Origin: a virus
Direction: 5' to 3' (one strand)
Length of the DNA: 37,729 nucleotides
IMG/VR virus record: IMGVR_UViG_3300034007_000002
Location: 1 to 37,729 of that record
In this document: positions 12,974 to 25,235 of the stretch, piece by piece
Position numbering within the stretch: the stretch's first letter is position 1
Layout of the letters: each line of letters begins with the position of its first letter
Translations under genes and position numbers: made by a program
The notes under the pieces: generated by a model
Databases searched by the model: none
Told to the model about the DNA's origin: nothing
What the model saw: only the letters and a program-made list of their open reading frames with translations

Positions 12974-13002
12974 AGTCTAACGCGAGAGAAAGGGAAAGTC
13001 AA
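12974..13002 (-). promoter_or_regulatory. Leftward promoter TTGACT-17-TAGACT
   Basis: The minus strand reads TTGACT ttccctttctctcgcgt TAGACT. The -10 is embedded in CGCGTTAGACTT. Confidence 0.55.
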
Positions 13003-13016
13003 ACTAACAATTACTC

Positions 13017-13046
13017 TTGCGTAAACTTTTCTTTGGCGTTAGACTT
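13017..13046 (+). promoter_or_regulatory. Rightward promoter TTGCGT-17-TAGACT, 8 nt upstream of ATG 13054 (leaderless mRNA predicted)
   Basis: TTGCGT aaacttttctttggcgt TAGACT tcccagcc ATG. The -10 is embedded in GGCGTTAGACTT. No SD can fit in the 8-nt gap. Confidence 0.55.
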
Positions 13047-13053
13047 CCCAGCC

Positions 13054-13272
13054 ATGAGTGCAACACTTACGACCAAAGAAGCAGCCGAGCGCCTCGGAGT
13101 TTCGCCAGCGCGCGTGCGTCAACTTGTACTTTCGGGCGAACTGCCGGCTGAAAAGTTCGGCCGTGACCTGATGATTAAAGAAGGTGATTTGAAGTTGGTC
13201 GCGGATCGCCCGATAGGTCGGCCGCCGAAGGCGCAGACCAAGAACACAGCAAAGAAAGGCAGTAAGAAATGA
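13054..13272 (+). CDS. Excisionase/MerR-like HTH DNA-binding protein (72 aa)
   Basis: LTTKEAAERLGVSPARVRQLVLSGELPAEKFGRDLMIKEGDL fits the HTH_17 / excisionase-family pattern. The C-terminal tail is AKKGSKK. Confidence 0.75.
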   Translation: MSATLTTKEAAERLGVSPARVRQLVLSGELPAEKFGRDLMIKEGDLKLVADRPIGRPPKAQTKNTAKKGSKK

Positions 13273-13514
13273 GCAGACAGCCACTTTCACCACCAGCAGA
13301 GCTAGACCTCGAAGACATAGCGGAAGGAATCACCGCTGTGCTTGATGGCCAAGACGCAATACTGAAGATGCTATGGTCGATACGAAGTGGCGTTAATGCG
13401 TCTTTCTTGGATGACTCCGATTTTCAGGTCATTAATATGCGGCGCAACTTCGCGCGGAACAATTTGAGAGTCAAGTCCGCTGCCGCAAAGGCAAAGAAAG
13501 GCGGGAAGAAGTAA
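13269..13514 (+). CDS. Hypothetical small acidic protein (81 aa), C-terminal tail AKKGGKK
   Basis: ATGA overlap with the upstream gene. No recognisable family. Confidence 0.6.
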   Translation: MSRQPLSPPAELDLEDIAEGITAVLDGQDAILKMLWSIRSGVNASFLDDSDFQVINMRRNFARNNLRVKSAAAKAKKGGKK

Positions 13515-13531
13515 GTTACGACTCCTGTGAA

Positions 13532-13885
13532 GTGAATAGAATGAAAAAGTCAGAACAAAAGTTGCTACGTAAATCCCTGAACAAGATTCTTCCTAGGGAT
13601 AGAGTTTCGCGGGAGGAACTAATTGGTAAAACTCCGCAGGAGCGGACAGATATACTTCTAGACCGCCTTGTGACTCCCGAGCAACAAGAGCGCGCAGGGC
13701 GCTATATGAACCGGACATTAGTGAGAATCTCTCTGCGAGAGGCACCCTCAGACGATGTGCCTCCCATAGATAAGATCAAGCTCTACGCCCGCTCCGGCTA
13801 CCACCTGCACCACATCGGCACGGATGAGGACTTCGAGCAAGTGTGGGAAGAGGCATTCCCTGAAGAGAAAGGCGGGAAGAAGTGA
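13532..13885 (+). CDS. Hypothetical protein (117 aa; alternative ATG at 13541), C-terminal tail EKGGKK
   Basis: ORF in series with its neighbours. No recognisable family. Confidence 0.55.
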   Translation: MNRMKKSEQKLLRKSLNKILPRDRVSREELIGKTPQERTDILLDRLVTPEQQERAGRYMNRTLVRISLREAPSDDVPPIDKIKLYARSGYHLHHIGTDEDFEQVWEEAFPEEKGGKK

Positions 13886-13953
13886 GCGGTGAGGAGATTA
13901 AATTGGCTGATGTGAGATACAAGGCGGCGCGCGAGCTGCGATAGGAAAGACCA

Positions 13954-14334
13954 TTGTTCGAGTCTGAAGAAGAGAAGAGAGTCAAATTTCTCTCCCGCAT
14001 TACCGATGAGGCGTATGAGCTTGCGATTCGGCTCGGCGTTTCAGAGGCTGCGGAGGGGGGAAGCGAGAGCGACCTGTACGCCCTCGAAAAGCTGTACCGC
14101 ATCCGGCTCATGGCTGTGCGGCGGATGATACGTCGCTGGAATGCTTCCACCGAAGCCGATATAGAGTTTAGGAAGACCGACGAGCAGAAGGCCCGGGACG
14201 CGCGCCACGCAGAACTGACCGAAATGTTCATGCGCGAGAAAGGGATGTCGCGGGTCGATGCGATGGTCGCGGCGTCGGGCGCCATGTACATGGAGGTCTA
14301 CAGCAAAGACAAGGACGACGATCTCGCTAACTAA
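13954..14334 (+). CDS. Hypothetical protein (126 aa, TTG start uncertain)
   Basis: ORF in the same operon-like series. No recognisable family. Confidence 0.45.
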   Translation: MFESEEEKRVKFLSRITDEAYELAIRLGVSEAAEGGSESDLYALEKLYRIRLMAVRRMIRRWNASTEADIEFRKTDEQKARDARHAELTEMFMREKGMSRVDAMVAASGAMYMEVYSKDKDDDLAN

Positions 14335-14373
14335 CGTCCCCGAGTACGACGGGCGACGAGGAGGGCAGTTACA

Positions 14374-14562
14374 GTGGAACTAGAGCTTGGAGAGTATGCG
14401 CGGTGGATTCTCGTCGAAAGCCCCGATGACTTCGACTGGGAAGAAGTGAGCTATGACGGGCACGGGTACGTCATCCTGAAGGACAGAAGCAGGCTCGACG
14501 TGAAACCGGATTTGTATCGGGCCGAGCGAGAGGCATGGAACGCAGAGCGGCATAGTAGATAG
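14374..14562 (+). CDS. Hypothetical small acidic protein (62 aa)
   Basis: GTG start preceded by GAGGAGG. No recognisable family. Confidence 0.5.
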   Translation: MELELGEYARWILVESPDDFDWEEVSYDGHGYVILKDRSRLDVKPDLYRAEREAWNAERHSR

Positions 14563-14609
14563 CAGTCTTAATGTCACTAACGTCATACTCGGCGAAGGTT
14601 TAGAGGGTT

Positions 14610-15308
14610 ATGGACGAAATAGCAACTCAGAAGTTCGTAAAGGAAGCAGTCTCACAATTCGTAGAGCTATGGGAAGATATTCCTGAAGCCCAACTAATCA
14701 AGCGCGACTCCAATCACTTCTTAATTGTTAAACCAACCTCTCTAATAAAAGAACTAAATGATGCCATACCATACGCAACGATACACATAAACTTAGAAGA
14801 GTTGTCCAGGCATTTTTTAAAGTCCGGGTCTATCGGGGAGCCAAGTATAGATAAAAGGTACATTGCTAAATTACAGATTCACGACATGCTCCGTACGGCT
14901 GAACTTGCCCCTAGCGTCTTCTCCTATTTCCTTAATTTTCTAGAGATATTGACGCTCCGAGAAGGTTTGGAGTCCCTATTAGGGTCTTTATCTGAAGACT
15001 CAAAGACAAAACTTGCAGAAGTTGCTGAACGCCTATTTCAAGTCATGTTGCAGCACTATAAGCTTCTGAAGGAGACAAAGCCCGGAGCCTCAAGTGTTAT
15101 TACTGATTTTGAAGCGCTTGAGGTCTTCCGCAAATCTAGGAATAGAGTGCTTTCCAAACGCCAATTAGCAAAAGAGATGCAAACAACTCCGGCTACCGTG
15201 CGTAGTTGGCTTCACAGAAAGGGATTCAAATCATCTGAAGAATTGCTGGATGATCTTTTAAAGCGTATTCACACTCTAATAGACAATGCACGGGAGGGTG
15301 AGAAGTAA
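14610..15308 (+). CDS. Low-GC paralog 1: unknown N-terminal domain plus C-terminal HTH
   Basis: Aligns by eye with 15380..16147. The N-termini share MDE..Q...K..V..F...W.D.PEAQ..KRD..HFLIVK and HINLEE. The C-termini share KPGASSVI...LAKE..T.PATVR.WL..KG..S..EL.DD. Confidence 0.75.
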   Translation: MDEIATQKFVKEAVSQFVELWEDIPEAQLIKRDSNHFLIVKPTSLIKELNDAIPYATIHINLEELSRHFLKSGSIGEPSIDKRYIAKLQIHDMLRTAELAPSVFSYFLNFLEILTLREGLESLLGSLSEDSKTKLAEVAERLFQVMLQHYKLLKETKPGASSVITDFEALEVFRKSRNRVLSKRQLAKEMQTTPATVRSWLHRKGFKSSEELLDDLLKRIHTLIDNAREGEK

Positions 15309-15379
15309 GTCGCTTTAGTTAGTGTTAGCCGCAGCCCGGTATGACCAAGAGCACAGTGTTAAGTAGAAGCTGAAAAGTT

Positions 15380-16147
15380 ATGGACGAAGAGGCAATCCAG
15401 AGGCTTGCGAAGAACGTAGTAGTGACGTTTCTAGTGGATTGGAAAGACACGCCCGAGGCGCAGGTGGTTAAGCGAGACGGGGCACATTTCTTGATCGTGA
15501 AGCTAGACTCACCGTTCTCTGCTGCGTTACATATCAATCTGGAAGAGAGATGCGAGCATGAGCTAAAACATCTCTACGAAGTAGTCGGGACGGAAGAAAG
15601 TGCGGACGATACTACTGACCTTATTTATAGTCTCGTCTATCGCCTACCACAGGAACTAACTTACATAACTAGAAGCGTGCCCGGTCTCTTCATCTACAGT
15701 CTTCATCTGCTGGACTTGTTAGCGTACCGTGAGCGCCTACGATCTGTATCAGAGTCTTTAACTCAAGGCAGACGGGAAAGGACTGAACTAGTAGCCAGAA
15801 TATTAACTCAAGGGTTATTACTGGCGCATGGCTTAACAGAGAGAAAGAAGCCGGGAGCATCAAGTGTCATCGATGACGACAAAGTACTTGATATTTTTCT
15901 TAGACTCCAAGGTGACGTGCCTTCAATCCGTAGGTTAGCAAAAGAACTAGAAACCGAACCTGCCACCGTGCGTAACTGGCTTCGCAAGAAGGGCTACAAC
16001 TCGCCTAAAGAATTAGCAGACGACGTAGTAAATTCAAATTCCAACTCAAAAGTAGATTTCTTTCTAAAAGTCAAAAGGTTACTTACTAAAAGTCAAAAGG
16101 GAACAACGGAAAGAAAGCAAAGGGGGAGGGTAGAAATTAAGCCCTAA
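15380..16147 (+). CDS. Low-GC paralog 2: unknown N-terminal domain plus C-terminal HTH
   Basis: Shares the motifs listed for 14610..15308. Its last codons lie inside the left arm of the 33-bp inverted repeat. Confidence 0.75.
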   Translation: MDEEAIQRLAKNVVVTFLVDWKDTPEAQVVKRDGAHFLIVKLDSPFSAALHINLEERCEHELKHLYEVVGTEESADDTTDLIYSLVYRLPQELTYITRSVPGLFIYSLHLLDLLAYRERLRSVSESLTQGRRERTELVARILTQGLLLAHGLTERKKPGASSVIDDDKVLDIFLRLQGDVPSIRRLAKELETEPATVRNWLRKKGYNSPKELADDVVNSNSNSKVDFFLKVKRLLTKSQKGTTERKQRGRVEIKP

Positions 16148-16211
16148 TCCTACCCGGGTAGAATTAACCTCGAATTATTACCTGGGTAGGATTAGGGCTT
16201 AATTTCTACCC
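16128..16211. repeat. 33-bp inverted repeat (one mismatch, G-U compatible) around an 18-nt spacer
   Basis: The left arm GGGTAGAAATTAAGCCCTAATCCTACCCGGGTA (16128-16160) pairs with TACCTGGGTAGGATTAGGGCTTAATTTCTACCC (16179-16211). Confidence 0.9.
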
Positions 16212-16213
16212 AA

Positions 16214-16241
16214 TTGACAGGATTTAGATTGGCGTTAGACT
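16214..16241 (+). promoter_or_regulatory. Promoter TTGACA-16-TAGACT
   Basis: TTGACA at 16214-16219 and TAGACT at 16236-16241. The -10 context TTGGCGTTAGACT is identical to that at 13033-13045. Confidence 0.55.
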
Positions 16242-16247
16242 GCGATT

Positions 16248-16506
16248 ACAGAAGCGGCGGGTGTGGCCCTGGAAAGTCAACACCCGCCGCGAGTCAAACC
16301 AGGACTTTTGACAGCCCCGGCTCGTTTGCGAGTGTAGCGAGAACCGACCCGGGGCGCAACAGCCATGAAGGCCGCCCCGTGATGGCGCTCTCTAGTAGGG
16401 CGTCGGCTGAGCCGTAGGTTTAGGTTTCTCGCGCACCGCTTTGCGTGAGATGGCAGGGCGTTCGTCGTCGGGGGTCACGGCCCGACGGCGGACGCCTTTT
16501 GCTTTT
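16248..16506 (+). ncRNA. Candidate structured RNA or attenuator leader of about 260 nt between promoter and terminator
   Basis: No convincing ORF. There is an 11-bp perfect stem, GCGGCGGGTGT...ACACCCGCCGC, at about 16254-16290. Nested CCCCGG/CCGGGG helices follow, and the region ends in the strong terminator at 16457-16506. Confidence 0.35.
16457..16506 (+). terminator. Strong rho-independent terminator
   Basis: A 16-bp stem pairs 16457-16472 with 16481-16496 (two G-U pairs) around an 8-nt loop, followed by TTTTGCTTTT. Confidence 0.7.
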
Positions 16507-16526
16507 GACGGCGGCCGGTATCACGC

Positions 16527-16859
16527 ATGAAAAACCCCTTTCAGAACGGTTCGCTACGTTACGTCGAGGCGAACGGCGTCCGCTTTACTCGATCCGTCTG
16601 CGGGTACTGCGGTCTTCCCTGTGTCTACCTGGGGGAGGCCATCCGCATCGACTTAGCCGAGGGCGGCTTCCAAATCCTCCACGTCTGCCTCCCCTGCCGA
16701 CGGCACCTGTGTTTAGACCTGCGGGGGTTATCGGACGCCGAAGTAGACCGCCTCGGATATCCCAGCGGGTATCCCAGCGGGTATCCCAACCGCTCGCCGA
16801 GAAACGAGCGCCACCTCGAAGAAGTGCACAGCCGGTGGGAAAGGAGACGTGCAGCGTAA
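16527..16859 (+). CDS. Zinc-ribbon protein (110 aa) with a GYPSGYPSGYP repeat, translationally coupled to the primase gene
   Basis: CGYCG...C...HVCLPC forms a four-Cys motif. Its TAA overlaps the primase ATG (TAATG). The alternative frame, the N-terminal extension of the 774-aa ORF, is Arg-rich and protein-unlike. There is no clear SD before ATG 16527. Confidence 0.55.
   Translation: MKNPFQNGSLRYVEANGVRFTRSVCGYCGLPCVYLGEAIRIDLAEGGFQILHVCLPCRRHLCLDLRGLSDAEVDRLGYPSGYPSGYPNRSPRNERHLEEVHSRWERRRAA
16756..16791. repeat. Tandem 12-bp repeat x3 (GATATCCCAGCG GGTATCCCAGCG GGTATCCCAACC)
   Basis: Read directly. It lies inside the zinc-ribbon ORF, about 70-100 bp upstream of the primase start. Confidence 0.9.
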
Positions 16860-18769
16860 TGGCTCAGCCCGCCACGGCCTTCACGAAGCAGGACGCGAAG
16901 AGGGACCGCCAGACTTACCAGCGGCTCGCCGGCATCGTTGACCGCCTCCTGCACCGTGACATCCAACGCCTCGACGAAGAGACGGCGCGGAAGTTCTTCA
17001 AGTCGTCGGTCTTCGCCACCATCCACAGCCTGCACGGATTCCTGAACGGCCGCGAGGTCTCGCACGACAGGCCGGTGATGAAGGCTCACAAGTTCGTCGT
17101 CGAGCACTTCGGCTACCGCGGCGACCGCGAGAACGACGCGGCCGTCGCGCGCTTCATGGCGCGCCACCTCTCGGGGCTGGCCGACGCGGAGAGGGCCGTC
17201 GGGCACCGGTACGTCACCGTCCGCCGCGCCGACAATCAGACCCAGCTCTTCACCAGCTACGAGGGCACACCGCTGCTCGACGCGGCCGAGTGGGTCTACT
17301 TCACGGCGCGGCAGAAGCCCGACTACTGGAAGAACCCGGCGGCGGCCGTGACGGACGATTTGCTCGACGCCGCGCTCGCCAAACTCCCCGAGGTCAAGAC
17401 GCGGGACGACTCCATGCCGTGCGGTCATGCGCCCGAATCCGGCGAGTGCGACGAGTGCGTGCCTAAGACCTTCTGCGGGCATCCTTCGGGGTCGGGCCAG
17501 TGCGAAGAGTGCGAGAAATGGGAGGCGGGCGACCTGATGAACGATTCAGTCGTCAAGGGCATGTGGACGAAGATAATAAACGCCGCCGAGCGGGCGTTAA
17601 TCAAGGAGTTCGATTCCGGCGCGGACCCGGAGCTGGCCGCCGCCAAACACGCCGCGAAGATTATCGAGATGGGCAAGCATATCAAGGAGAAGCTCGCCCG
17701 CGAGCGGCTTCGGGCGGCGATGATGCCTGCGCGGCGACATGACGAGGAGGACGAGGACACGCAAACGACGCACAGTGGTAAAGAAAGTGTTACCTCAAAC
17801 GCGGGGGGTACCCCTGACAAATTTGTCAGGGTACCCGATGATTATGTAGTTGAACCGGTTGAGGTTACTGAACCGGCCGCAGAGGATTTACCCGAAATTC
17901 AGCGCAACGCGCTCGAATACGCGGCGGCGGGGATCGCCGTCCTCCCGCTGTGGGGGGTCGCGGACGCGATTTGTGATTGCCCCGCGGGTTCGGAGTGCCG
18001 GACGGCCGGGAAGCACCCGCACAGCCAGCTCGCCCGGAACGGCGTCTACTCGGCTACGATCGACGGGCAGGTCATACGCGGCTGGTTCAAGAAAGACCCG
18101 CGGATCAACCTGGGGGTTGCGATGGGCGGCGCCCTCAACCTCATCTGCGTAGACATAGACCCGCGCAACGACGGCGACGCCTCGTATTCAGATTTGATAG
18201 ACGCCCACGGCGAAGACGCCTTTCCCGAGACGTTCACCGTGAAGACCGGCGGGGGCGGCTGGCACCGCTACTACAGGCTCCCCTACACCATCAAAGCCGA
18301 GAAAGGCGAGCTAAAGGGAAAGCTCGGCCCCGGCATCGACATCAAAGGCGCGGGCGGGCAGATAGTCGCGCCCGGCTCAGTTCACTCAAGCGGCGCTTCC
18401 TATCAGGTCGAAACTAACGCCTACATCGTGGAAGCCCCGGAGTGGATGGTAAACGTCCTGCTCAAGTCGGCGTCCGGCGAGAAGCCCGAGGTCGTTGTTG
18501 ACTTTCAGGCGCACAGCGACCGGAAGCGCGCGGGGGTGGGCGGCCCAATCATCGTCGAGGGCGAGCGCAACGAAAGGCTCTTTAAGGTCGGGTGCGCGCT
18601 GTGGGGCAAGGGCGAAGTGGGGAGCCGGGGGGAGTTGTTACAGCGCCTCTCCGAAGTGAACCTCAAAAGGGTGTCACCCCCGCTCGACTCGGATGAGGTT
18701 TGGAAGATTGTTGAGAGCATAGTGAGCCGCTACGCCCTAGGCGTGCCGATTAAGGAAGGTGCCGCATGA
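16859..18769 (+). CDS. Bifunctional primase-polymerase (Prim-Pol domain plus PriCT-like C-terminus) with a roughly 330-aa N-terminal region of unknown type
   Basis: AAGGAG lies upstream of ATG 16859. Prim-Pol motifs are GIAVLPLWG...GKHP...NLICVDIDPRNDG...GGGWHRYY...GIDIKGAGGQIVAPGSVH. The C-terminus GERNERLFKVGCALWGKG...PLDSDEVWKIVESI is PriCT-like. Confidence 0.85.
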   Translation: MAQPATAFTKQDAKRDRQTYQRLAGIVDRLLHRDIQRLDEETARKFFKSSVFATIHSLHGFLNGREVSHDRPVMKAHKFVVEHFGYRGDRENDAAVARFMARHLSGLADAERAVGHRYVTVRRADNQTQLFTSYEGTPLLDAAEWVYFTARQKPDYWKNPAAAVTDDLLDAALAKLPEVKTRDDSMPCGHAPESGECDECVPKTFCGHPSGSGQCEECEKWEAGDLMNDSVVKGMWTKIINAAERALIKEFDSGADPELAAAKHAAKIIEMGKHIKEKLARERLRAAMMPARRHDEEDEDTQTTHSGKESVTSNAGGTPDKFVRVPDDYVVEPVEVTEPAAEDLPEIQRNALEYAAAGIAVLPLWGVADAICDCPAGSECRTAGKHPHSQLARNGVYSATIDGQVIRGWFKKDPRINLGVAMGGALNLICVDIDPRNDGDASYSDLIDAHGEDAFPETFTVKTGGGGWHRYYRLPYTIKAEKGELKGKLGPGIDIKGAGGQIVAPGSVHSSGASYQVETNAYIVEAPEWMVNVLLKSASGEKPEVVVDFQAHSDRKRAGVGGPIIVEGERNERLFKVGCALWGKGEVGSRGELLQRLSEVNLKRVSPPLDSDEVWKIVESIVSRYALGVPIKEGAA

Positions 18770-18960: not shown

Positions 18961-19149
18961 CTACGGTGCTACCTGACTGGCGCAGGGGCCGCCCGTCGTG
19001 TCGTGAACGCACCAGTAGTAACAGGTCTTATCGGCACCGCAATAGTCGGCGCAACATTTGCTGGCCACCATAGCTGGACCGTCGTCGTCAAAGGGAACAA
19101 CGGACAGTAATGCGACGAGCATCGTGAGCAAGACGAGTCTCTTTTTCAT
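18961..19149 (-). CDS. Secreted Cys-rich mini-protein (62-aa precursor, 6 Cys)
   Basis: AAGGAG SD; signal peptide MKKRLVLLTMLVALLSVVPF, then ...KCCADYCGADKTCYYWCVHDTTGGPC.... Confidence 0.75.
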   Translation of the reverse strand: MKKRLVLLTMLVALLSVVPFDDDGPAMVASKCCADYCGADKTCYYWCVHDTTGGPCASQVAP

Positions 19150-19496: not shown

Positions 19497-19754
19497 ATGC
19501 TGAAACATCCCGCGGGGCGACTCGCCCGCCGCCTCTCCGCCCTGTTCATGCTCGCCGCCGCCCTCACGACGCTCCTGTCAAATCCCGTTAGCCACCAAGC
19601 CGAGGGTTGGGCGGGCACTCCCGACTGGCCGCCGTGCTGTGGGTATACGTGTTCTCTGTCAATAGACGATGAGACGCAACAGTGCGTTATGACTTGCTGC
19701 CGGTGGCCGTCAGGCTGCATGACGGGCCCTTGCAGTCCAGAAGTGGAACCGTAG
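19497..19754 (+). CDS. Secreted Cys-rich mini-protein (85-aa precursor, 8 Cys), paralog of 10506..10700
   Basis: AAGGAG SD and a hydrophobic signal region. The tail CCGYTCSLSIDDETQQCVMTCCRWPSGCMTGPCSP aligns with ECVIICCDGSWCDGTPCP of the paralog. Confidence 0.8.
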   Translation: MLKHPAGRLARRLSALFMLAAALTTLLSNPVSHQAEGWAGTPDWPPCCGYTCSLSIDDETQQCVMTCCRWPSGCMTGPCSPEVEP

Positions 19755-19947: not shown

Positions 19948-20271
19948 CTACTGGCAGTAGAACAGGTCGGAGTAGTAGCCGGTCTCGCCGTTAGCGTCCG
20001 TCACGGTCACGGAGATGGTCCTGCTGATGCCGGAACATCCGATGCGCAGTGACTGCCCGCTCCCAGTAATCGGCGACGGCCCCCACGCATAGGTGTAAGG
20101 GGCCGTGCCCCCGTACACCTCGGTCGTACAGCGCAGTTGATCGTAGGCCAAGCCTATACAGTCTATACTGACGATTGGGCCTGTCCGGGCCTCGACAGGT
20201 TTGACCGGGGCGGCCAGCGGCGCGAGGGCGACGAACGCGAGGGCGAGCGCCAGAATCAGTTTATAACGCAT
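19948..20271 (-). CDS. Secreted single-domain Ig/SprB-repeat-like protein (107 aa), paralog of 9921..10277
   Basis: Signal peptide MRYKLILALALAFVALAPLAAP, then C-x10-C...YGGTAPYTYAW...VTDANGETG...C. Confidence 0.8.
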   Translation of the reverse strand: MRYKLILALALAFVALAPLAAPVKPVEARTGPIVSIDCIGLAYDQLRCTTEVYGGTAPYTYAWGPSPITGSGQSLRIGCSGISRTISVTVTDANGETGYYSDLFYCQ

Positions 20272-20471: not shown

Positions 20472-20702
20472 ATGACCAGAACTTTAACGGCGACGATCTG
20501 GCGCGAGACGGACGGCTACGTCTCCCTCTGCCCCGAACTCGACATCGCCTCACAAGGGGATACGGTCGAGGAGGCGCGGGCGAACCTCCAGGAGGCGGTG
20601 GACCTCTTCTTCGAGGCGGCGGACGCCTCCGAGGTGGCCGAGCGTCTGAAGCCCGAGATGTACGTCACTTCGCTGGAGGTCAACGTTGGGGAGGCTGCGT
20701 AG
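20472..20702 (+). CDS. hicB: HicB-family antitoxin
   Basis: LTATIWRETDGYVSLCPELDIASQGDTVEEARANLQEAVDLFFE fits the HicB/UPF0150 N-terminal pattern. It overlaps the downstream toxin gene. Confidence 0.85.
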   Translation: MTRTLTATIWRETDGYVSLCPELDIASQGDTVEEARANLQEAVDLFFEAADASEVAERLKPEMYVTSLEVNVGEAA

Positions 20703-20910
20703 GCTCTCGGGGCGCGAGGTCTGCGCCATCCTCGCCCGCCACGGCTTCGCCGAGGCCCGCCAGCGCGGGAGTCACGTGGTCATGCAGAGGAGGACGGACC
20801 AGGGGACGGTGACCGTGCCGGTACCCCTCCACAACGAGCTGCGCACCGGCACGCTCCACTCCATCATCAGGCAGTCGGGGGTTCCGCGGGCGGAGTTCGA
20901 GACGGAGTAA
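20686..20910 (+). CDS. hicA: HicA-family mRNA interferase toxin (TTG start)
   Basis: LSGREVCAILARHGFAEARQRGSHVVMQR....VTVPVPLHNELRTGTLHSIIRQSGV fits the HicA/YcfA pattern. Confidence 0.85.
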   Translation: MGRLRRLSGREVCAILARHGFAEARQRGSHVVMQRRTDQGTVTVPVPLHNELRTGTLHSIIRQSGVPRAEFETE

Positions 20911-20976
20911 CACCTTCCCCGTCAACGGAGATGTCCCACTTTTGGGCACGCCGGCCTGAAATTCCCTCTCAAATCT

Positions 20977-21194
20977 TCTGACGCGAGTCTCTGACGCGGA
21001 GGCCGTTTTTTGACCTCTCTGACGCGCGTAACCCTCACGCCTAGAATCACTTACAGCCGAAAATTTTCGCGTCAGAGACTCGGGATGTTTTTTATTTCTT
21101 GTAAGTTAAAGCAAATACAAGACTTATGGCGCTAAAAATCCGCGTCAGAGAGCCTCGCTATTTTAGTTGTAATGCGTTAGAAAGTTCTGACGCG
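20977..21194. repeat. Array of six 9-bp repeats TCTGACGCG (extended consensus about TCTCTGACGCGGA)
   Basis: Forward copies at 20977, 20990, 21018 and 21186; reverse copies (CGCGTCAGA) at 21068 and 21141. All lie in a lower-GC stretch of about 620 bp with no convincing ORF. Confidence 0.9.
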
Positions 21195-21537
21195 GAGTGT
21201 TATGTGAAGTTCAGCAGCCGGGGTCGGGGCAGATGCAGGGTTGAAAAGTAGAGATTGTGCCGGAGCCGAGATCAATCGAAAGCCGTAGCAAATGACGGGA
21301 GAGTAATGCGGCTGTGACGTCCGGAATAACGCCCGAGTAACGAAGAAATAATGGCCATGAGGGTTGGTTATAGGAAAAAGCCGAAAAGGTTGACTTGGAT
21401 TCATGAGATTAGTGAGTCGATAATTTGCGTTGAAGCAGAAGTCGAGTGCAGAAGCTGTAGATGGTTGTTCCCGACATCCTACGGCTTCACGATCTAGAAC
21501 TAACCTTCAATTCTTACCCACCCCTCCCCGAATTATC

Positions 21538-21567
21538 TTGACTTCCCTTCCCTCATCAACGTATAAC
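21538..21567 (+). promoter_or_regulatory. Promoter TTGACT-18-TATAAC, 8 nt upstream of ATG 21576 (leaderless mRNA predicted)
   Basis: TTGACT tcccttccctcatcaacg TATAAC cacccgtt ATG. There is no SD. Confidence 0.55.
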
Positions 21568-21575
21568 CACCCGTT

Positions 21576-22433
21576 ATGAAGGCTTACAAGGATTTTGGCC
21601 TTAAAGAGAATCCATTCGTGCCGAGTCCGAACCCCCGGTTCCTCTACCTGACCGACCAGACGAATGCTTGCCTCTTCAAGTGCAAGTTTGTCATCGAGGA
21701 GCGGCAGGGACTCTCCCTCATCGTCGGGAAAATCGGCTACGGCAAGACTTCGGTGCTGCGCGAGCTCCTGAACGGGTACATCGACGACGAGACTTACAAG
21801 ATCGCGATGCTCCCGAACGGCAGCTTCCCTTCCGAGATGCAGCTCGCGAAGGCCATCTCCAGTGAGTTGGGGCTCCCGGGTCGCCGGTCATTACTCGCGC
21901 AAATAAATGAGATACGCGACTACGCTTTCCAGATTTACGGCGGCGGCGGGACCATCATTCTCATCATCGACGAGGCGCAGAATCTTAAGGGCGCTCAGTT
22001 CGATTTCCTCCGGGAATTGCTCAATTTTGAGAGTAACGAGGCGAAGACCATTCAGATCATCATCGCCGGCCAGCCCGAGATTGAAACCAAACTGGCGACC
22101 AAGCCCGCACTCGTCTCCCGCATCATCCTGACGAACTACCTGGATACCTTCACGTTCGAGGACATGGTGGCCGCCCTGGAGCACCGGATACGCCTCGCCG
22201 GGGGTAAGCTCGACATCCTCGGTGAGGACGCGTTGAAGGCTCTCTACGTCGCTTCCAGGGGCGTCCCGCGCGAGATCATGAAGATTGCCAACGCTTCCCT
22301 TCTCCTCGCGGCCGTCAACGAAACCAGACCGATCACCGACGGCATCATCAAGCTAGCGGTCGAGAACATTTTGAGCACGGAACGAAATGGAGAACCGGAA
22401 ACCACTGAACTTCGCGCAGGCGCTTCGCAGTAG
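21576..22433 (+). CDS. ExeA-like AAA+ ATPase (AAA_22 type; relatives include ExeA, TniB and MuB-like proteins)
   Basis: FGLKENPFVPSPNPRFLYLTDQ...LIVGKIGYGKTSVLRELL (Walker A) and IILIIDEAQNL (Walker B). Confidence 0.85.
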   Translation: MKAYKDFGLKENPFVPSPNPRFLYLTDQTNACLFKCKFVIEERQGLSLIVGKIGYGKTSVLRELLNGYIDDETYKIAMLPNGSFPSEMQLAKAISSELGLPGRRSLLAQINEIRDYAFQIYGGGGTIILIIDEAQNLKGAQFDFLRELLNFESNEAKTIQIIIAGQPEIETKLATKPALVSRIILTNYLDTFTFEDMVAALEHRIRLAGGKLDILGEDALKALYVASRGVPREIMKIANASLLLAAVNETRPITDGIIKLAVENILSTERNGEPETTELRAGASQ

Positions 22434-23169
22434 GCCGCGCGAGTCACCCGATAACCAACCGGCAGAACGTCAAGTATCCACCACGGCTGATAGCCAGCTA
22501 TCCACCACGGCGGCTATCCAGCAACCCACCGCGCCGGCAACACAGATTCCACCACCTAGCCTGCTAGCCACCACCCCCTCGGAACCGGCTATCCAGCAAT
22601 CCCCAAAGCGCAGGGTGGATAGCCACCGGAAGAAACGTGTGGATAGCCGAAAAGGCGACCGGCATCGTGGGGACAAGGTGCCCTTCAACAACCGGTTAAG
22701 CTCGGAGACAGTCAGCCGTATCAAACACTTCTGCGTGGATCATGGACTTGAGCAACAGGAATTCGCCGAGCTCGCGGCAATCCACTTTATGGATGCGGTG
22801 GATAGCCAGAAAGCCGAAGCGTCGGATAGCAAGATAGCCTCTGATGATAGAGAATTGATGATACTATTTAGAACGGAGCTTAGTATCATCAATCTCTACC
22901 TTCAGTACAACCCCGAAAACCGGTGGAAACCGGCCGACGACTACGAGGGTCAGCGGTATAACGGGAAGGACATTCGCCTTGTCGAAATCGGCATCATCCA
23001 GACCCAATTCAACGCGAGGTTCAAGAAGGTCAACTCGTTCAAATACTACACGACCGAGATAGACGAGGCGCTGGCCGTGCCCCTCACAGGTGAGACAATC
23101 GACATCATGCTCAGACAGGGCCGCCGCAGGTGGGAACAGGCGACCGGCAAGCTTATAAGCACACCTTAA
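22387..23169 (+). CDS. Ribbon-helix-helix-like DNA-binding protein (260 aa) carrying an intragenic iteron cluster
   Basis: The low-complexity N-terminus (STTADSQLSTTAAIQQ...RRVDSHRKKRVDS) is encoded by the repeats. FNNRLSSETVSRIKHFCVDHGLEQQEFAELAAIHFM then fits a strand-helix-helix pattern. The C-terminal 120 aa are of unknown type. Confidence 0.7.
   Translation: MENRKPLNFAQALRSRPRESPDNQPAERQVSTTADSQLSTTAAIQQPTAPATQIPPPSLLATTPSEPAIQQSPKRRVDSHRKKRVDSRKGDRHRGDKVPFNNRLSSETVSRIKHFCVDHGLEQQEFAELAAIHFMDAVDSQKAEASDSKIASDDRELMILFRTELSIINLYLQYNPENRWKPADDYEGQRYNGKDIRLVEIGIIQTQFNARFKKVNSFKYYTTEIDEALAVPLTGETIDIMLRQGRRRWEQATGKLISTP
22474..22839. repeat. About ten copies of a GGATAGCC / GGCTATCC core in two opposed orientation blocks
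   Basis: GCTATCCA-type copies at 22474, 22497, 22512 and 22587. TGGATAGCC-type copies at 22614, 22638 and 22797, with partial copies at 22488, 22823 and 22832. Several match the DnaA box TTATCCACA at 7-8 of 9 positions. Confidence 0.85.
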
Positions 23170-23229
23170 AAAACCCTTCCTAACTGATAAGAAAATCTTA
23201 ACTTTAACGCCAAAAACAAGGGCGTTTCA

Positions 23230-23238
23230 TGCTACAAT
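23230..23238 (+). promoter_or_regulatory. Extended -10 element TGCTACAAT
   Basis: TGn-TACAAT with no clear -35. It lies at the start of a stretch of about 280 bp with no ORF. Confidence 0.4.
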
Positions 23239-23244
23239 GTTCGC

Positions 23245-23482
23245 ATGTTTTGAACGTGAAAACAGGCGGCGCGTCAGCCCCTTGCCAGAGTCCAAACGCG
23301 ACCGCCTGCCTTATCCGCTGACAGGCAGCGGGGCGGCAATCTTAGCATAAGTTTTGCCTCAAACAACCCCGCCGACCTGTTCCATTCTGGGAGCAGTTAA
23401 AGGCAGTGTCCGGCGGGGCAAGTAAGGATCATCGGCCGCCCGATTCGCGCATGTTTAGCGCGGGGGGTGGCCGTCTCTTTTT
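23245..23482 (+). ncRNA. Candidate structured RNA or leader of about 240 nt
   Basis: No convincing ORF. Helices include CAGGCGGCGCGT...ACGCGACCGCCTG, GGCAA...TTGCC and CCCCGCC...GGCGGGG. The region ends in a terminator-like hairpin. Confidence 0.3.
23433..23482 (+). terminator. Terminator-like compound hairpin followed by TCTCTTTTT
   Basis: CGGCCGCCC (23433-23441) pairs with GGGTGGCCG (23465-23473). An inner CGCGC/GCGCG stem is nested within, and a T-tract follows. Confidence 0.5.
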
Positions 23483-23512
23483 CCCGCCGGCGTCTCCGCC
23501 GAAAGGGGAAAA

Positions 23513-23716: not shown

Positions 23717-24219
23717 CAGCCCCGCGCCGCCCCGTGACGCTCAAGACTGCTCCTAGACGGGCGAAGCCTGACACCTCGCGCGAACTGACGGTCGAGCCCT
23801 CGGGCTTTATCCGTAACGAGTGGCTGGAGACGCTTTCCCGCATCAAGGCCGACCAGCCTAAGAGGTACGCGCGCGAGGTCTCTGCGGGCTTACAGGTGAC
23901 AGTCAGGAACTACGAAGACAGGAGGCGAGCAAAACACGATGAGAGGGAAGGGAATTCCACTGCCCGGCGAACGCCCGAGCGCGCAGCCGGGGACGAGGAT
24001 GCTGCTGATACCTCAGTCACCCGCCGACCCGATGAGGCTGGCCGGGGAAGCCATCGGAGACCTAAAGCGCGAGCGCCCGCCGCGCCCCGTAAAGAGCAGC
24101 AAGAAGAAGCCGAAGCGCAGGGGCGCGATAGGCGCCCCGCGTGGGTCACATTCGCAAGGTACTTCCTGAGCTTTCAAACTGAGGGTGACGCGCAACGCTC
24201 AACCCCCCTCTCGGCGTAG
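23713..24219 (+). CDS. Hypothetical basic protein (168 aa); the frame of the 3' half is uncertain
   Basis: The N-terminal half looks protein-like. From about 23939 an alternative frame (23939..24169) has a higher third-position GC by eye. Confidence 0.4.
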   Translation: MTAPRRPVTLKTAPRRAKPDTSRELTVEPSGFIRNEWLETLSRIKADQPKRYAREVSAGLQVTVRNYEDRRRAKHDEREGNSTARRTPERAAGDEDAADTSVTRRPDEAGRGSHRRPKARAPAAPRKEQQEEAEAQGRDRRPAWVTFARYFLSFQTEGDAQRSTPLSA

Positions 24220-24421: not shown

Positions 24422-24615
24422 AAGACGTTTCGATCACGACGATGGTGGGGTGGGCACGTATCGCTGTCATCCTCGGGTGCGCGGCGGCCTTCCTCCTCAA
24501 GCAAATTACTCTGCTCGAAGCCACGGCCGCCGCGACCGGCATCTGCGGGCTGCTCGGCGGGGTGGGCTTCATCAGCGCGCAGGACGCCGAGCAGCCGAAG
24601 CCGCCGGCCGCCTGA
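24418..24615 (+). CDS. Small two-TM membrane protein (65 aa)
   Basis: ATGA overlap with the upstream gene. The hydrophobic helices are GWARIAVILGCAAAFLL and AAATGICGLLGGVGFI. Confidence 0.6.
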   Translation: MKDVSITTMVGWARIAVILGCAAAFLLKQITLLEATAAATGICGLLGGVGFISAQDAEQPKPPAA

Positions 24616-24638
24616 AAGGAGGCTCTGACATCCCTGTG

Positions 24639-25235
24639 ATGGCCTTACAGCCTACCCCTGACCAGAACGCTCCCAACCCGCCGACCTCTAAGAAGTGCAG
24701 CGGGGAGTGTAGGCGCGTGCTGCCCGCCTCCTGCTTTCTTCCCGACCGGAACCGGAAGAGCGGCCGGCGGAGCGACTGCAAAGACTGCTATCGCGCGCGC
24801 CGGGGGAGTCAGGGCAAGGAGGGGAAGCAGGCTCGGGCACTCGCAAAGGAGCTGTGGGTCATTCGGGAAGCCTACGGGGGCATCCCGTCGCTGGCCGACG
24901 TGCTCAACCGAGCCTTAGAGGAAGTCCGGCAGATCGGCGCCATCGGGGCCAAGTTCGACGAGCAGGTGGCGGCCGTGCGGCGGGCGGTCGTGGTGCAGGG
25001 CTGCCGCAGCGCCGAGGAGGTTATCGAAGAGACGGGGCTGTCGCGCTGGGTCGTAGACCGGGCGCTGGAGAAGCTGGTCGGCGACGGCGTGCTCGAAACC
25101 CGTGACCGCTTCTGCCTGAGCGAAGAGGCGGGCGAGCCGGGCCGCCCCGTTACCGAGTACCACCCGACTGACACCCCGCGCGGCGAAATCTTTACTCACC
25201 TCTTACGCCGTGCCGTTGATGACGACCTGCTCTGA
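24639..25235 (+). CDS. Zinc-finger plus winged-helix-like DNA-binding protein (198 aa)
   Basis: AAGGAGG upstream of the start. CSGECRRVLPASCF...CKDCY is a Cys4 motif. The C-terminal EEVIEETGLSRWVVDRALEKLVGDGVLE is wHTH-like. Confidence 0.6.
   Translation: MALQPTPDQNAPNPPTSKKCSGECRRVLPASCFLPDRNRKSGRRSDCKDCYRARRGSQGKEGKQARALAKELWVIREAYGGIPSLADVLNRALEEVRQIGAIGAKFDEQVAAVRRAVVVQGCRSAEEVIEETGLSRWVVDRALEKLVGDGVLETRDRFCLSEEAGEPGRPVTEYHPTDTPRGEIFTHLLRRAVDDDLL

Follow-up and report, generated by a model that had tools for sequence, protein, structure and literature searches.

What could be the function of a gene for an AAA+ ATPase that overlaps the gene for a putative ribbon-helix-helix (RHH) protein in the genome of a tailed phage, with short repeats both upstream and inside of this gene pair? 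The question is posed by positions 20472-23169 of the IMG/VR virus record IMGVR_UViG_3300034007_000002, which was analysed over its full 37,729 nucleotides (termed the window in the following). The initial annotation had left two readings for the pair, namely a replication initiator with its loader, or a non-canonical segregation system with the layout of type Ib/II partition loci. The former reading is supported by Phage_rep_O-type partner proteins in related loci, by variant-specific iterons, by an AT-rich stretch and by the Orc1/Cdc6- and TnsC-like fold of the ATPase, whereas the partition analogy fails, owing to the class of the ATPase and to a repeat array that is not conserved with the genes. 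We consider it probable that positions 21498-23169 constitute a self-contained, horizontally exchanged replication-initiation cassette that follows the logic of the lambda O/P system, with the origin inside the partner gene. The grounds for this that were computed here are the anatomy of the cassette, the selection of its repeats at the DNA level, the co-variation of repeat motif and DNA-binding domain, the replacement of the RHH protein by Phage_rep_O-type proteins, and the fold of the ATPase.

The ATPase/partner cassette and its limits

When the flanking DNA of the ATPase and partner genes was compared across many contigs, nucleotide homology to six unrelated contexts was found to span only about 21503-23149, i.e. 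a promoter region of some 70 bp and the two genes, and in the loci L001-L003 and L007-L010 the homology starts at 21497-21507. Judged from these alignments, the unit that is conserved across unrelated elements of Acidobacteriota comprises only 21498-23169, with the promoter, the ATPase gene and the overlapping partner gene. The conserved left edge (21498-21575, plus strand) carries a putative promoter with TTGACT at 21538-21543, an 18-nt spacer and TATAAC at 21562-21567. These hexamers were read from the sequence, and the site is missing from the promoter scan because the -10 hexamer ends in C. As the ATPase gene begins with the ATG at 21576, its mRNA is predicted to be nearly leaderless. In the sister phage L008, hicA is joined directly to this promoter, and in L010 other genes, one of a putative RNA-recognition-motif type, are found between the hicA-equivalent region and the promoter. 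On the other side, the cassette is placed just ahead of the late-gene region. The 343 bp that follow it (23170-23512) are non-coding, match no Rfam family, and are conserved in all four sister phages (L007-L010), L010 included despite its other type of partner gene. The late transcription unit may begin here, and the stretch is not counted as part of the cassette.

The homologues come from genome bins of Pyrinomonadaceae and Blastocatellia (Acidobacteriota) and from soil metagenomes. A scan of genome contigs returned mostly distant ExeA/PEP-CTERM paralogues of Geobacteraceae and Acidobacteriaceae, and the cassette itself only in the Pyrinomonadaceae loci L018-L024 and L028; four loci were found in a metagenome scan with a degenerate pattern of the partner motif. 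In tblastn searches, the ATPase matched none of 50,697 GenBank phages and the partner none of the PLSDB plasmids. The ATPase matches in PLSDB (28-33%) are ATPases of exopolysaccharide clusters or unannotated, and were rejected as cassettes. No description of the cassette was found in the literature, GenBank phages or PLSDB, and PHROG scans of the cassette neighbours in L002 and L004 gave no matches.

The first gene of the cassette (21576-22433, plus strand) encodes an ATPase of 285 amino acids that is of the AAA_22/ExeA/TniB type, as had been recognised initially (Pfam AAA_22, E 3.8e-21). Its motifs are intact (Walker A GKIGYGKTS, Walker B LIIDEAQ, invariant SR and GVPR), and the latter two can be read as arginine finger and sensor 2. 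The AlphaFold2 (AF2) model, with a pLDDT of 89, ends with the lid helices at amino acid 272 and has no winged-helix domain. The best structural matches are archaeal Orc1/Cdc6 proteins: Foldseek against the PDB returned Orc2/Cdc6 (1w5t, 7e-11), VchTnsC of Vibrio (1e-10), ShCAST TnsC of Scytonema and eukaryotic ORC1 at TM scores of about 0.6-0.7, with 0.67-0.69 for 1fnn and 2qby. A profile of the ATPase matched PDB sequences of ORC1 (2e-5) and TnsC (4e-4), and Cdc6 sequences too. In contrast to the archaeal proteins, the phage ATPase stops after the AAA+ lid, without a C-terminal winged helix, and DNA recognition would have to come in trans from the partner. Further matches are PHROG 296, described as 'DNA transposition protein' (3.5e-22), and Pfam TniB, at 22.5 bits with a cutoff of 22.4. 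The closest named family comprises ExeA/GspA and the XrtA/PEP-CTERM-associated ATPases of exopolysaccharide systems (TIGR03015), with 28-35% identity across the AAA+ domain. However, the TIGR03015 match (E 8e-40) is with 136.9 bits far below the cutoff of 324.5, and the genes of this family have chain-length determinants, tyrosine kinases or GspB-like proteins as neighbours, none of them with a partner gene. Likewise, the homologues with 30-35% identity in Geobacteraceae and Acidobacteriaceae are found in exopolysaccharide-type neighbourhoods without a partner gene. A large protein collection contains 383 homologues of the ATPase, many of which are 75-96% identical.

The partner gene (22387-23169, plus strand) overlaps the ATPase gene by 47 nt and encodes 260 amino acids. 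The protein begins with a conserved peptide (MENRKPLNFAQALRS), followed by a repeat-encoded region (amino acids 15-97), the RHH segment (98-141) and a C-terminal domain (155-253). In the AF2 model, amino acids 1-97 are disordered, 98-141 form a strand-helix-helix, and 155-253 are confidently predicted to be all-helical; Foldseek found no fold match for this C-terminal domain in PDB or BFVD. That the partner is an RHH protein, as initially annotated, is moderately supported by the predicted topology and by a diverse-family profile, which over the RHH segment matched three solved proteins, namely 2KEL (E 7e-4), which we take to be SvtR, an RHH regulator of an archaeal virus, 6NOY_G (E 3e-3), deposited as carboxysome-positioning 'B' protein, and the CopG-family RHH protein 9KKD (E 0.27). 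Pfam did not add to this assignment, as the partner matches none of its families, Phage_rep_O included, and a 59-residue profile of the RHH alone retrieved nothing from PDB sequences. There are 155 homologues of the partner in the large protein collection, and a profile search of a library of 1.84 billion proteins gave 240 clusters at 50% identity, none of them annotated.

Repeats within and upstream of the cassette

The repeats that matter most for the interpretation are located in the partner gene. There are seven copies of GTGGATAGCC with at most one mismatch, all in 22496-22807 and none elsewhere in the genome. The second repeat set of the initial annotation is thereby confirmed, but it lies inside the RHH gene and not beside it. 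The copies belong to two iteron clusters. Cluster 1 (22486-22648) contains about seven (G/C)TGGATAGCC copies in both orientations, with starts at 22486, 22615 and 22639 on the plus strand and at 22496, 22512, 22562 and 22587 on the minus strand. Cluster 2 (22776-22840) is found just past the RHH-coding segment, with starts at 22798 and 22822 (plus) and 22776 (minus), and with GATAGCC at 22834. All partner variants that were examined have two such clusters, one on either side of the coding segment for the DNA-binding domain.

The counts were compared with controls in which the protein sequence was fixed and synonymous codons were reshuffled. The 7-mer GGATAGC, observed seven times in the gene of the window, is expected 0.19 times with the codon usage of the genome and 0.95 times with synonymous permutation within the gene, and none of 5000 trials reached seven. 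A large excess over such controls was also found in L007, L002 and L004, which have the same motif as the window, and likewise for the motifs of L009 (GGACGCC, nine copies in three frames), L010 (CGATAGC) and L103 (GCTAGC, eight observed and 1.6 expected). The motif of the window uses the rare Asp codon GAT (40/280). As the counts exceed the synonymous-codon controls, and as the repeats are found on both strands and are not tied to a single reading frame, the in-gene repeats are selected at the DNA level.

Moreover, the repeat motif co-varies with the DNA-binding domain. In three RHH variants, the strand KVPFNNRLS is paired with GGATAGCC, the near-identical RVAFNNRLN with GGCTAGCC, and the dissimilar LVRQHFRIP with GGACGCC(CAC), the motif of the L009 type being GTGGACGCC. 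Between the window and L009, the ATPases of which are 96% identical, a different sequence is found from just past the ATPase stop codon up to RHH helix B, whereas the copies of cluster 2 show point changes (VDS to VDA).

Directly after cluster 2 follows an AT-rich stretch (22831-22905) that is a candidate DNA-unwinding element. It has 36% GC, with 30% in its lowest 40-nt window, and contains a perfect 13-nt inverted repeat (22854-22866 and 22881-22893). The GC content at third codon positions (GC3) is 0.29 in this stretch and 0.69 in the remainder of the partner gene. In 12 of 13 cassettes, the 40-nt window with the lowest GC content (20-35%) is at or near the site right after cluster 2, and in L012 this site ranks second. 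GC3 at this site is 0.07-0.43 in the cassettes examined, as compared to 0.49-0.74 elsewhere in the gene. When the dip was tested against the gene-wide minimum, it was significant in five variants with winged-helix partners (L010, L014, L022, L024 and L028).

As a side observation, the DnaA box TGTGGATAA and the iteron core GTGGATAG (22476-22807 of the window) agree at 7 of 9 bases. A cluster of DnaA boxes was considered and rejected, as 22638-22646 is the sole site within one mismatch of the box.

The repeat array upstream of the ATPase gene, which the initial annotation had noted as well, is confirmed by six exact copies of TCTGACGCG (chance expectation 0.81; none of 100 shuffles reached six). 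By enrichment and location of these copies, it forms an AT-rich island (20965-21220, 46% GC), with copies at 20977, 20990, 21018 and 21186 on the plus strand and at 21068 and 21141 on the minus strand, all inside 20977-21194. The island contains two inverted-repeat pairs, 20984-20998 with 21068-21082, which is perfect, and 21133-21149 with 21186-21202; folded as RNA, it has a z-score of -2.6. It is about 90% conserved in L009, the flanks having diverged, and in IMG/VR its paired-repeat pattern is found on the contig of L009 only. Upstream of the cassette in L002, L004, L007, L008 and L010, the array is not present. The Prim-Pol gene accompanies the island in both phages that have it, and within 10 kb upstream of the L010 cassette both are absent. 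The view of an operon with an upstream array as one unit is thus not tenable, since the array is 380-600 bp away from the ATPase gene and absent from L008 and L010. Because these sister phages are without the array and it is shared with L009 only, the island is a lineage-specific accessory outside of the cassette, and not the cis site of the ATPase/partner module.

Exchange of the partner protein and weighing of the explanations

In L014/L015, the ATPase is about 90% identical to that of the window, and the overlapping downstream gene encodes a protein of 253 amino acids that passes the Pfam gathering thresholds for Phage_rep_O (32.8 bits, threshold 28.7) and HTH_36. L010, with an ATPase of 96% identity, has the same type of partner, with a Phage_rep_O match (3.7e-5) that is below the threshold. 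In the distant Pyrinomonadaceae cassettes (ATPase 34-40%), Phage_rep_O is the top match of 4 out of 7 partners; sub-threshold matches to this family were obtained with the partners of L010, L018, L020, L021 and L028. The winged-helix partners keep a related N-terminal peptide (LNFAQALR, GFAALYDL), and they have two clusters of their own periodic repeats (15-18 bp) around the segment that encodes the winged helix.

At their other end, the winged-helix partners (L010, 10812-11627; L014, 10812-11573; L018, L020, L021, L022, L024, L028) terminate in CPDCxGTGxxYPxGxxxGVxxCxH, a zinc-finger-like motif of the CxxCxGxG kind, and thereby differ from the all-helical C-terminal domain of the RHH-type partner of the window.

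The resemblance to lambda O/P is thus found at several levels. As is the case with ori-lambda, which is located inside gene O, the presumed initiator gene holds its own iterons, with predicted binding, followed by an AT-rich stretch. The specificity segment, comprising iterons and DNA-binding domain, is swapped among relatives while the remainder is kept, a second gene is expected to bring the host helicase, the module is positioned just upstream of the late genes, and sister cassettes have an N-terminal domain of the Phage_rep_O type. There are differences as well: the gene order in the cassette is reversed and the genes overlap, an AAA_22-type AAA+ ATPase takes the place of lambda P, the initiator of the window is an RHH protein and not a winged-helix protein, two iteron clusters surround the segment for the DNA-binding domain, and the C-terminal domain of the partner matches no known fold. 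What is known is therefore the lambda-type initiator logic with an in-gene origin, and what is unusual is the AAA_22 ATPase with its Orc/TnsC-like fold, the interchangeability of RHH and winged-helix initiators, the arrangement of iterons in two clusters, and the C-terminal domain without a fold match in PDB or BFVD.

Mechanistically, the cassette would function as follows. The promoter would drive two translationally coupled genes, and the partner would be the origin-binding initiator, whose RHH dimers would bind the GTGGATAGCC iterons in the two clusters of their own gene. Its N-terminal peptide and/or its C-terminal helical domain would then recruit the Orc1/Cdc6- and TnsC-like ATPase, which would form oligomers on the DNA. 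Next to them, the AT-rich stretch at 22831-22905 would open. Host DnaB helicase would be loaded, and priming could come from the phage Prim-Pol or from the host primase. Binding, contacts between the proteins, melting and helicase loading are steps that we infer. No helicase gene was recognised anywhere in the phage genome in scans with Pfam, PHROGs, NCBIfam and PADLOC. Iterons, an AT-rich unwinding element and helicase loading make up the general logic of origins, and many bacteria may have unidentified helicase loaders (PMC4980987). In its proposed role, the loading of DnaB by an AAA+ protein in concert with an initiator bound to the origin, the ATPase resembles the loaders DnaC, DnaI and IstB, but it matches neither the IstB_IS21 nor the DnaC family, and its fold is that of Orc/Cdc6 and TnsC.

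If this is true, the Orc1/Cdc6- and TnsC-like AAA+ ATPase joins a short list of bacterial partners of origin-binding initiators, and RHH and winged-helix initiators alternate in one and the same slot. The cassette has moved between phages and other elements of Acidobacteriota. Genetic tools are nearly lacking for these abundant soil bacteria, and a 1.7-kb cassette that brings along an origin and two replication proteins would be a candidate base for shuttle vectors. A further-reaching idea, which we put forward tentatively and hold to be rather improbable, is that the ATPase itself melts the origin. It would then represent a "split Orc1/Cdc6", the winged helix of which is supplied in trans by an exchangeable RHH or winged-helix subunit with sites in its own gene, and initiation would be of a two-component, ORC-like kind in bacteria, independent of DnaA- and Rep-type initiators.

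Several points weigh against the replication cassette. An RHH domain would typically be expected in a partition protein or a repressor and not in an initiator, and the ATPase families that are closest (TIGR03015, PHROG 296) are not known as helicase loaders. Of the seven winged-helix partners that were scanned, just one scores above the curated cutoff for Phage_rep_O, and cross-hits occur among winged-helix families. In the RHH variants, that of the window among them (389/2000), the depth of the AT dip does not reach significance when judged over the whole gene, and for this reason the AT-rich argument for the window rests on the conserved position. The phage also encodes Prim-Pol, and its real origin could be the other AT-rich island with repeats (20965-21220). 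Finally, the cassette of L012/L013 (10001-11564 of a 94-kb contig) is surrounded by genes of metabolism (AMP-binding, TPP enzyme, Fe-ADH, PEP mutase, condensation domain). Within 10 kb, nothing else there is recognisable as a gene of a mobile element, and the locus may indicate either a large plasmid or a cassette copy that was left stranded.

What alternatives exist? The ATPase could be an adaptor like TnsC, TniB or MuB, in which case a sequence-specific DNA binder would bring the AAA+ ATPase to a site that is thereby flagged for a transposase, recombinase or nuclease instead of for replication. This is unlikely, even though the fold class fits (VchTnsC with a TM score of 0.69, ShCAST TnsC with about 0.7), as do the matches to PHROG 296 and, right at the threshold, to TniB, and even though these ATPases are also recruited by a site-specific DNA binder; in L001 and L014/L015, moreover, the cassette is followed by a tyrosine integrase gene at a distance of 1.3-2 kb. 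However, no transposase, TniQ or TnsD was found in the window or beside the cassette in L002-L015 or L103, the predicted binding sites are inside the cassette and not at a target, and the slot of the DNA binder can be taken by Phage_rep_O-type proteins. The lambda-type gpA terminase and the circular closure of the genome speak against a transposable phage of the Mu kind.

Quite unlikely, too, is an episomal phage-plasmid in which the pair acts as a non-canonical partition system, with the RHH protein bound to centromere-like repeats and the ATPase moving or positioning genome copies. An NTPase gene that is followed by the gene for a small RHH protein, with arrays of short sites, indeed resembles ParF/ParG, delta/omega and ParM/ParR, and the RHH profile matches the carboxysome-positioning protein mentioned above. 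But the ATPase is an AAA+ protein of the initiator clade, which is another branch of the superfamily than ParA, and it is not of the ParM or TubZ type either. The proposed centromere array is absent from L008 and L010 and thus not conserved with the genes. The repeats that are conserved are in-gene and next to an AT-rich, GC3-depressed stretch, which is a feature of origins and not of centromeres, and proteins of the Phage_rep_O winged-helix type can replace the RHH protein. L001 even has separate genes of the ParA and ParB_N families, 6-9 kb apart from its cassette. It therefore seems advisable not to annotate a combination of ATPase, RHH protein and repeats as partition locus until the co-conservation of the parts has been checked. 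The episomal side of this explanation, for which the absence of an integrase, the contig sizes of close relatives and the closure of the genome can be cited, is discussed below.

Least of all do we expect the pair to be a transcription regulator or to have some other function (defence, late-gene activation), with autoregulatory in-gene repeats and with the TCTGACGCG island as true origin used by Prim-Pol: RHH proteins are classic autorepressors, the late genes are close by, and the island is AT-rich, has repeats in both orientations and is conserved in L009 together with Prim-Pol, but a PADLOC scan gave no matches, the promoter (21498-21575), where one would look for an autoregulatory operator, has no GTGGATAGCC copy, simple repression does not need an AAA+ ATPase with Orc1/Cdc6 and TnsC fold, and phages of the L010 type have the cassette without Prim-Pol or island nearby, which makes the cassette the common element.

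The phage genome, its lifestyle and neighbouring genes

The window stems from a tailed phage with about 63% GC, whose structural genes include a large terminase subunit (TerL) of the lambda gpA type, a lambda-type portal and an HK97-type capsid protein. The tail module is similar to those of gene-transfer agents, and the tape-measure gene spans the arbitrary ends of the window. These ends are identical over 127 bp, giving a closed circular unit of 37,602 bp, and another public assembly of the same phage has 37,743 bp, i.e. 37,602 + 141. The same circle was thus closed by two assemblers, each with an overlap equal to its k-mer size. In the whole window, the Rfam search found no family and the tRNA search no tRNA. 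The cumulative GC skew was rejected as origin marker; its turn near 8-9 kb tracks the direction of transcription and is uninformative with respect to the origin.

The initial annotation had recognised no recombinase. This was borne out by profile searches of the plausible open reading frames (ORFs) of at least 150 amino acids, in which no tyrosine or serine recombinase, DDE transposase or protelomerase was found (Pfam for all; PHROGs, NCBIfam and PADLOC in addition for ORFs without assignment), and tblastn of the window with two acidobacterial integrases gave nothing. ParA, ParB, ParM or other partition proteins were not found in the window with the same four resources. A non-integrating state is favoured by the lack of recombinase matches and by the relatives with at least 76% TerL identity, which are all on contigs of at most 41.6 kb. 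However, the contig Ga0643806_0000020 of L097 (TerL 72%; 65.5 kb, of which 1-21980 was read) adjoins the host genes FUR, AhpC and M17 peptidase, and its collinear homology to the window starts near 23,945, just downstream of the position of the cassette. L098 (TerL 62%) has a tyrosine integrase and no cassette, and TerL relatives with 54-63% identity are on contigs of up to 2.2 Mb. By these contexts, the wider lineage does integrate.

An episomal phage-plasmid lifestyle has no positive support, because no partition genes were found, the toxin-antitoxin module is patchy among relatives, with hicA missing from L009 and L010, and circular contigs of unit length are equally expected of a lytic phage. 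The absence of an integrase likewise fits a purely lytic phage equally well. Circular closure fits an episome, virion DNA and replicative DNA alike, and the phage may be lytic, episomal or integrating.

The hicBA module upstream of the TCTGACGCG island is firm with regard to the toxin gene hicA (20686-20910, plus strand; 74 amino acids), which has a Pfam HicA_toxin match of E 5.7e-18 (65 bits, cutoff 27). The hicB-like antitoxin gene (20472-20702, plus strand; 76 amino acids) matches HicB_lk_antitox (E 0.0024) and UPF0150 (E 0.015) only below the Pfam thresholds (18.5 bits, threshold 27), and its assignment is supported by its position directly upstream of hicA with a 17-nt overlap. Taken together, gene order and matches point to a HicAB toxin-antitoxin system. 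The hicB product is 96% identical in L008, and in L009 and L010 conservation is limited to amino acids 1-58, the gene being truncated. Since L008 has hicA but L009 and L010 do not, the toxin gene is an accessory.

That the phage has its own Prim-Pol could be verified, since Pfam matched Prim-Pol and PriCT_1 in the C-terminal third (amino acids 489-762) of the 774-residue product of the ORF 16445-18769; the N-terminal 488 amino acids had no match in Pfam, PHROGs, NCBIfam or PADLOC. The region from the Prim-Pol gene to hicBA contains three small ORFs (18961-19149, minus; 19497-19754, plus; 19948-20271, minus). Their products have hydrophobic, signal-peptide-like N-termini, two are cysteine-rich, and the ORFs are possibly moron genes.

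Upstream of the Prim-Pol gene, positions 13000-16400 form an island of low GC content (46-51%, as compared to about 63%). It contains the tandem paralogous ORFs 14610-15308 and 15380-16147, which both match a single ORF of L009 with 40-41% identity and have no family match beyond weak helix-turn-helix signals. In the region downstream of the cassette, the ORF 24450-25235 (261 amino acids) has an endonuclease VII/Lar-like zinc-finger region (PHROG 1035, 5.6e-8) and a weak winged-helix signal, and it is kept in all sister phages and in L097.

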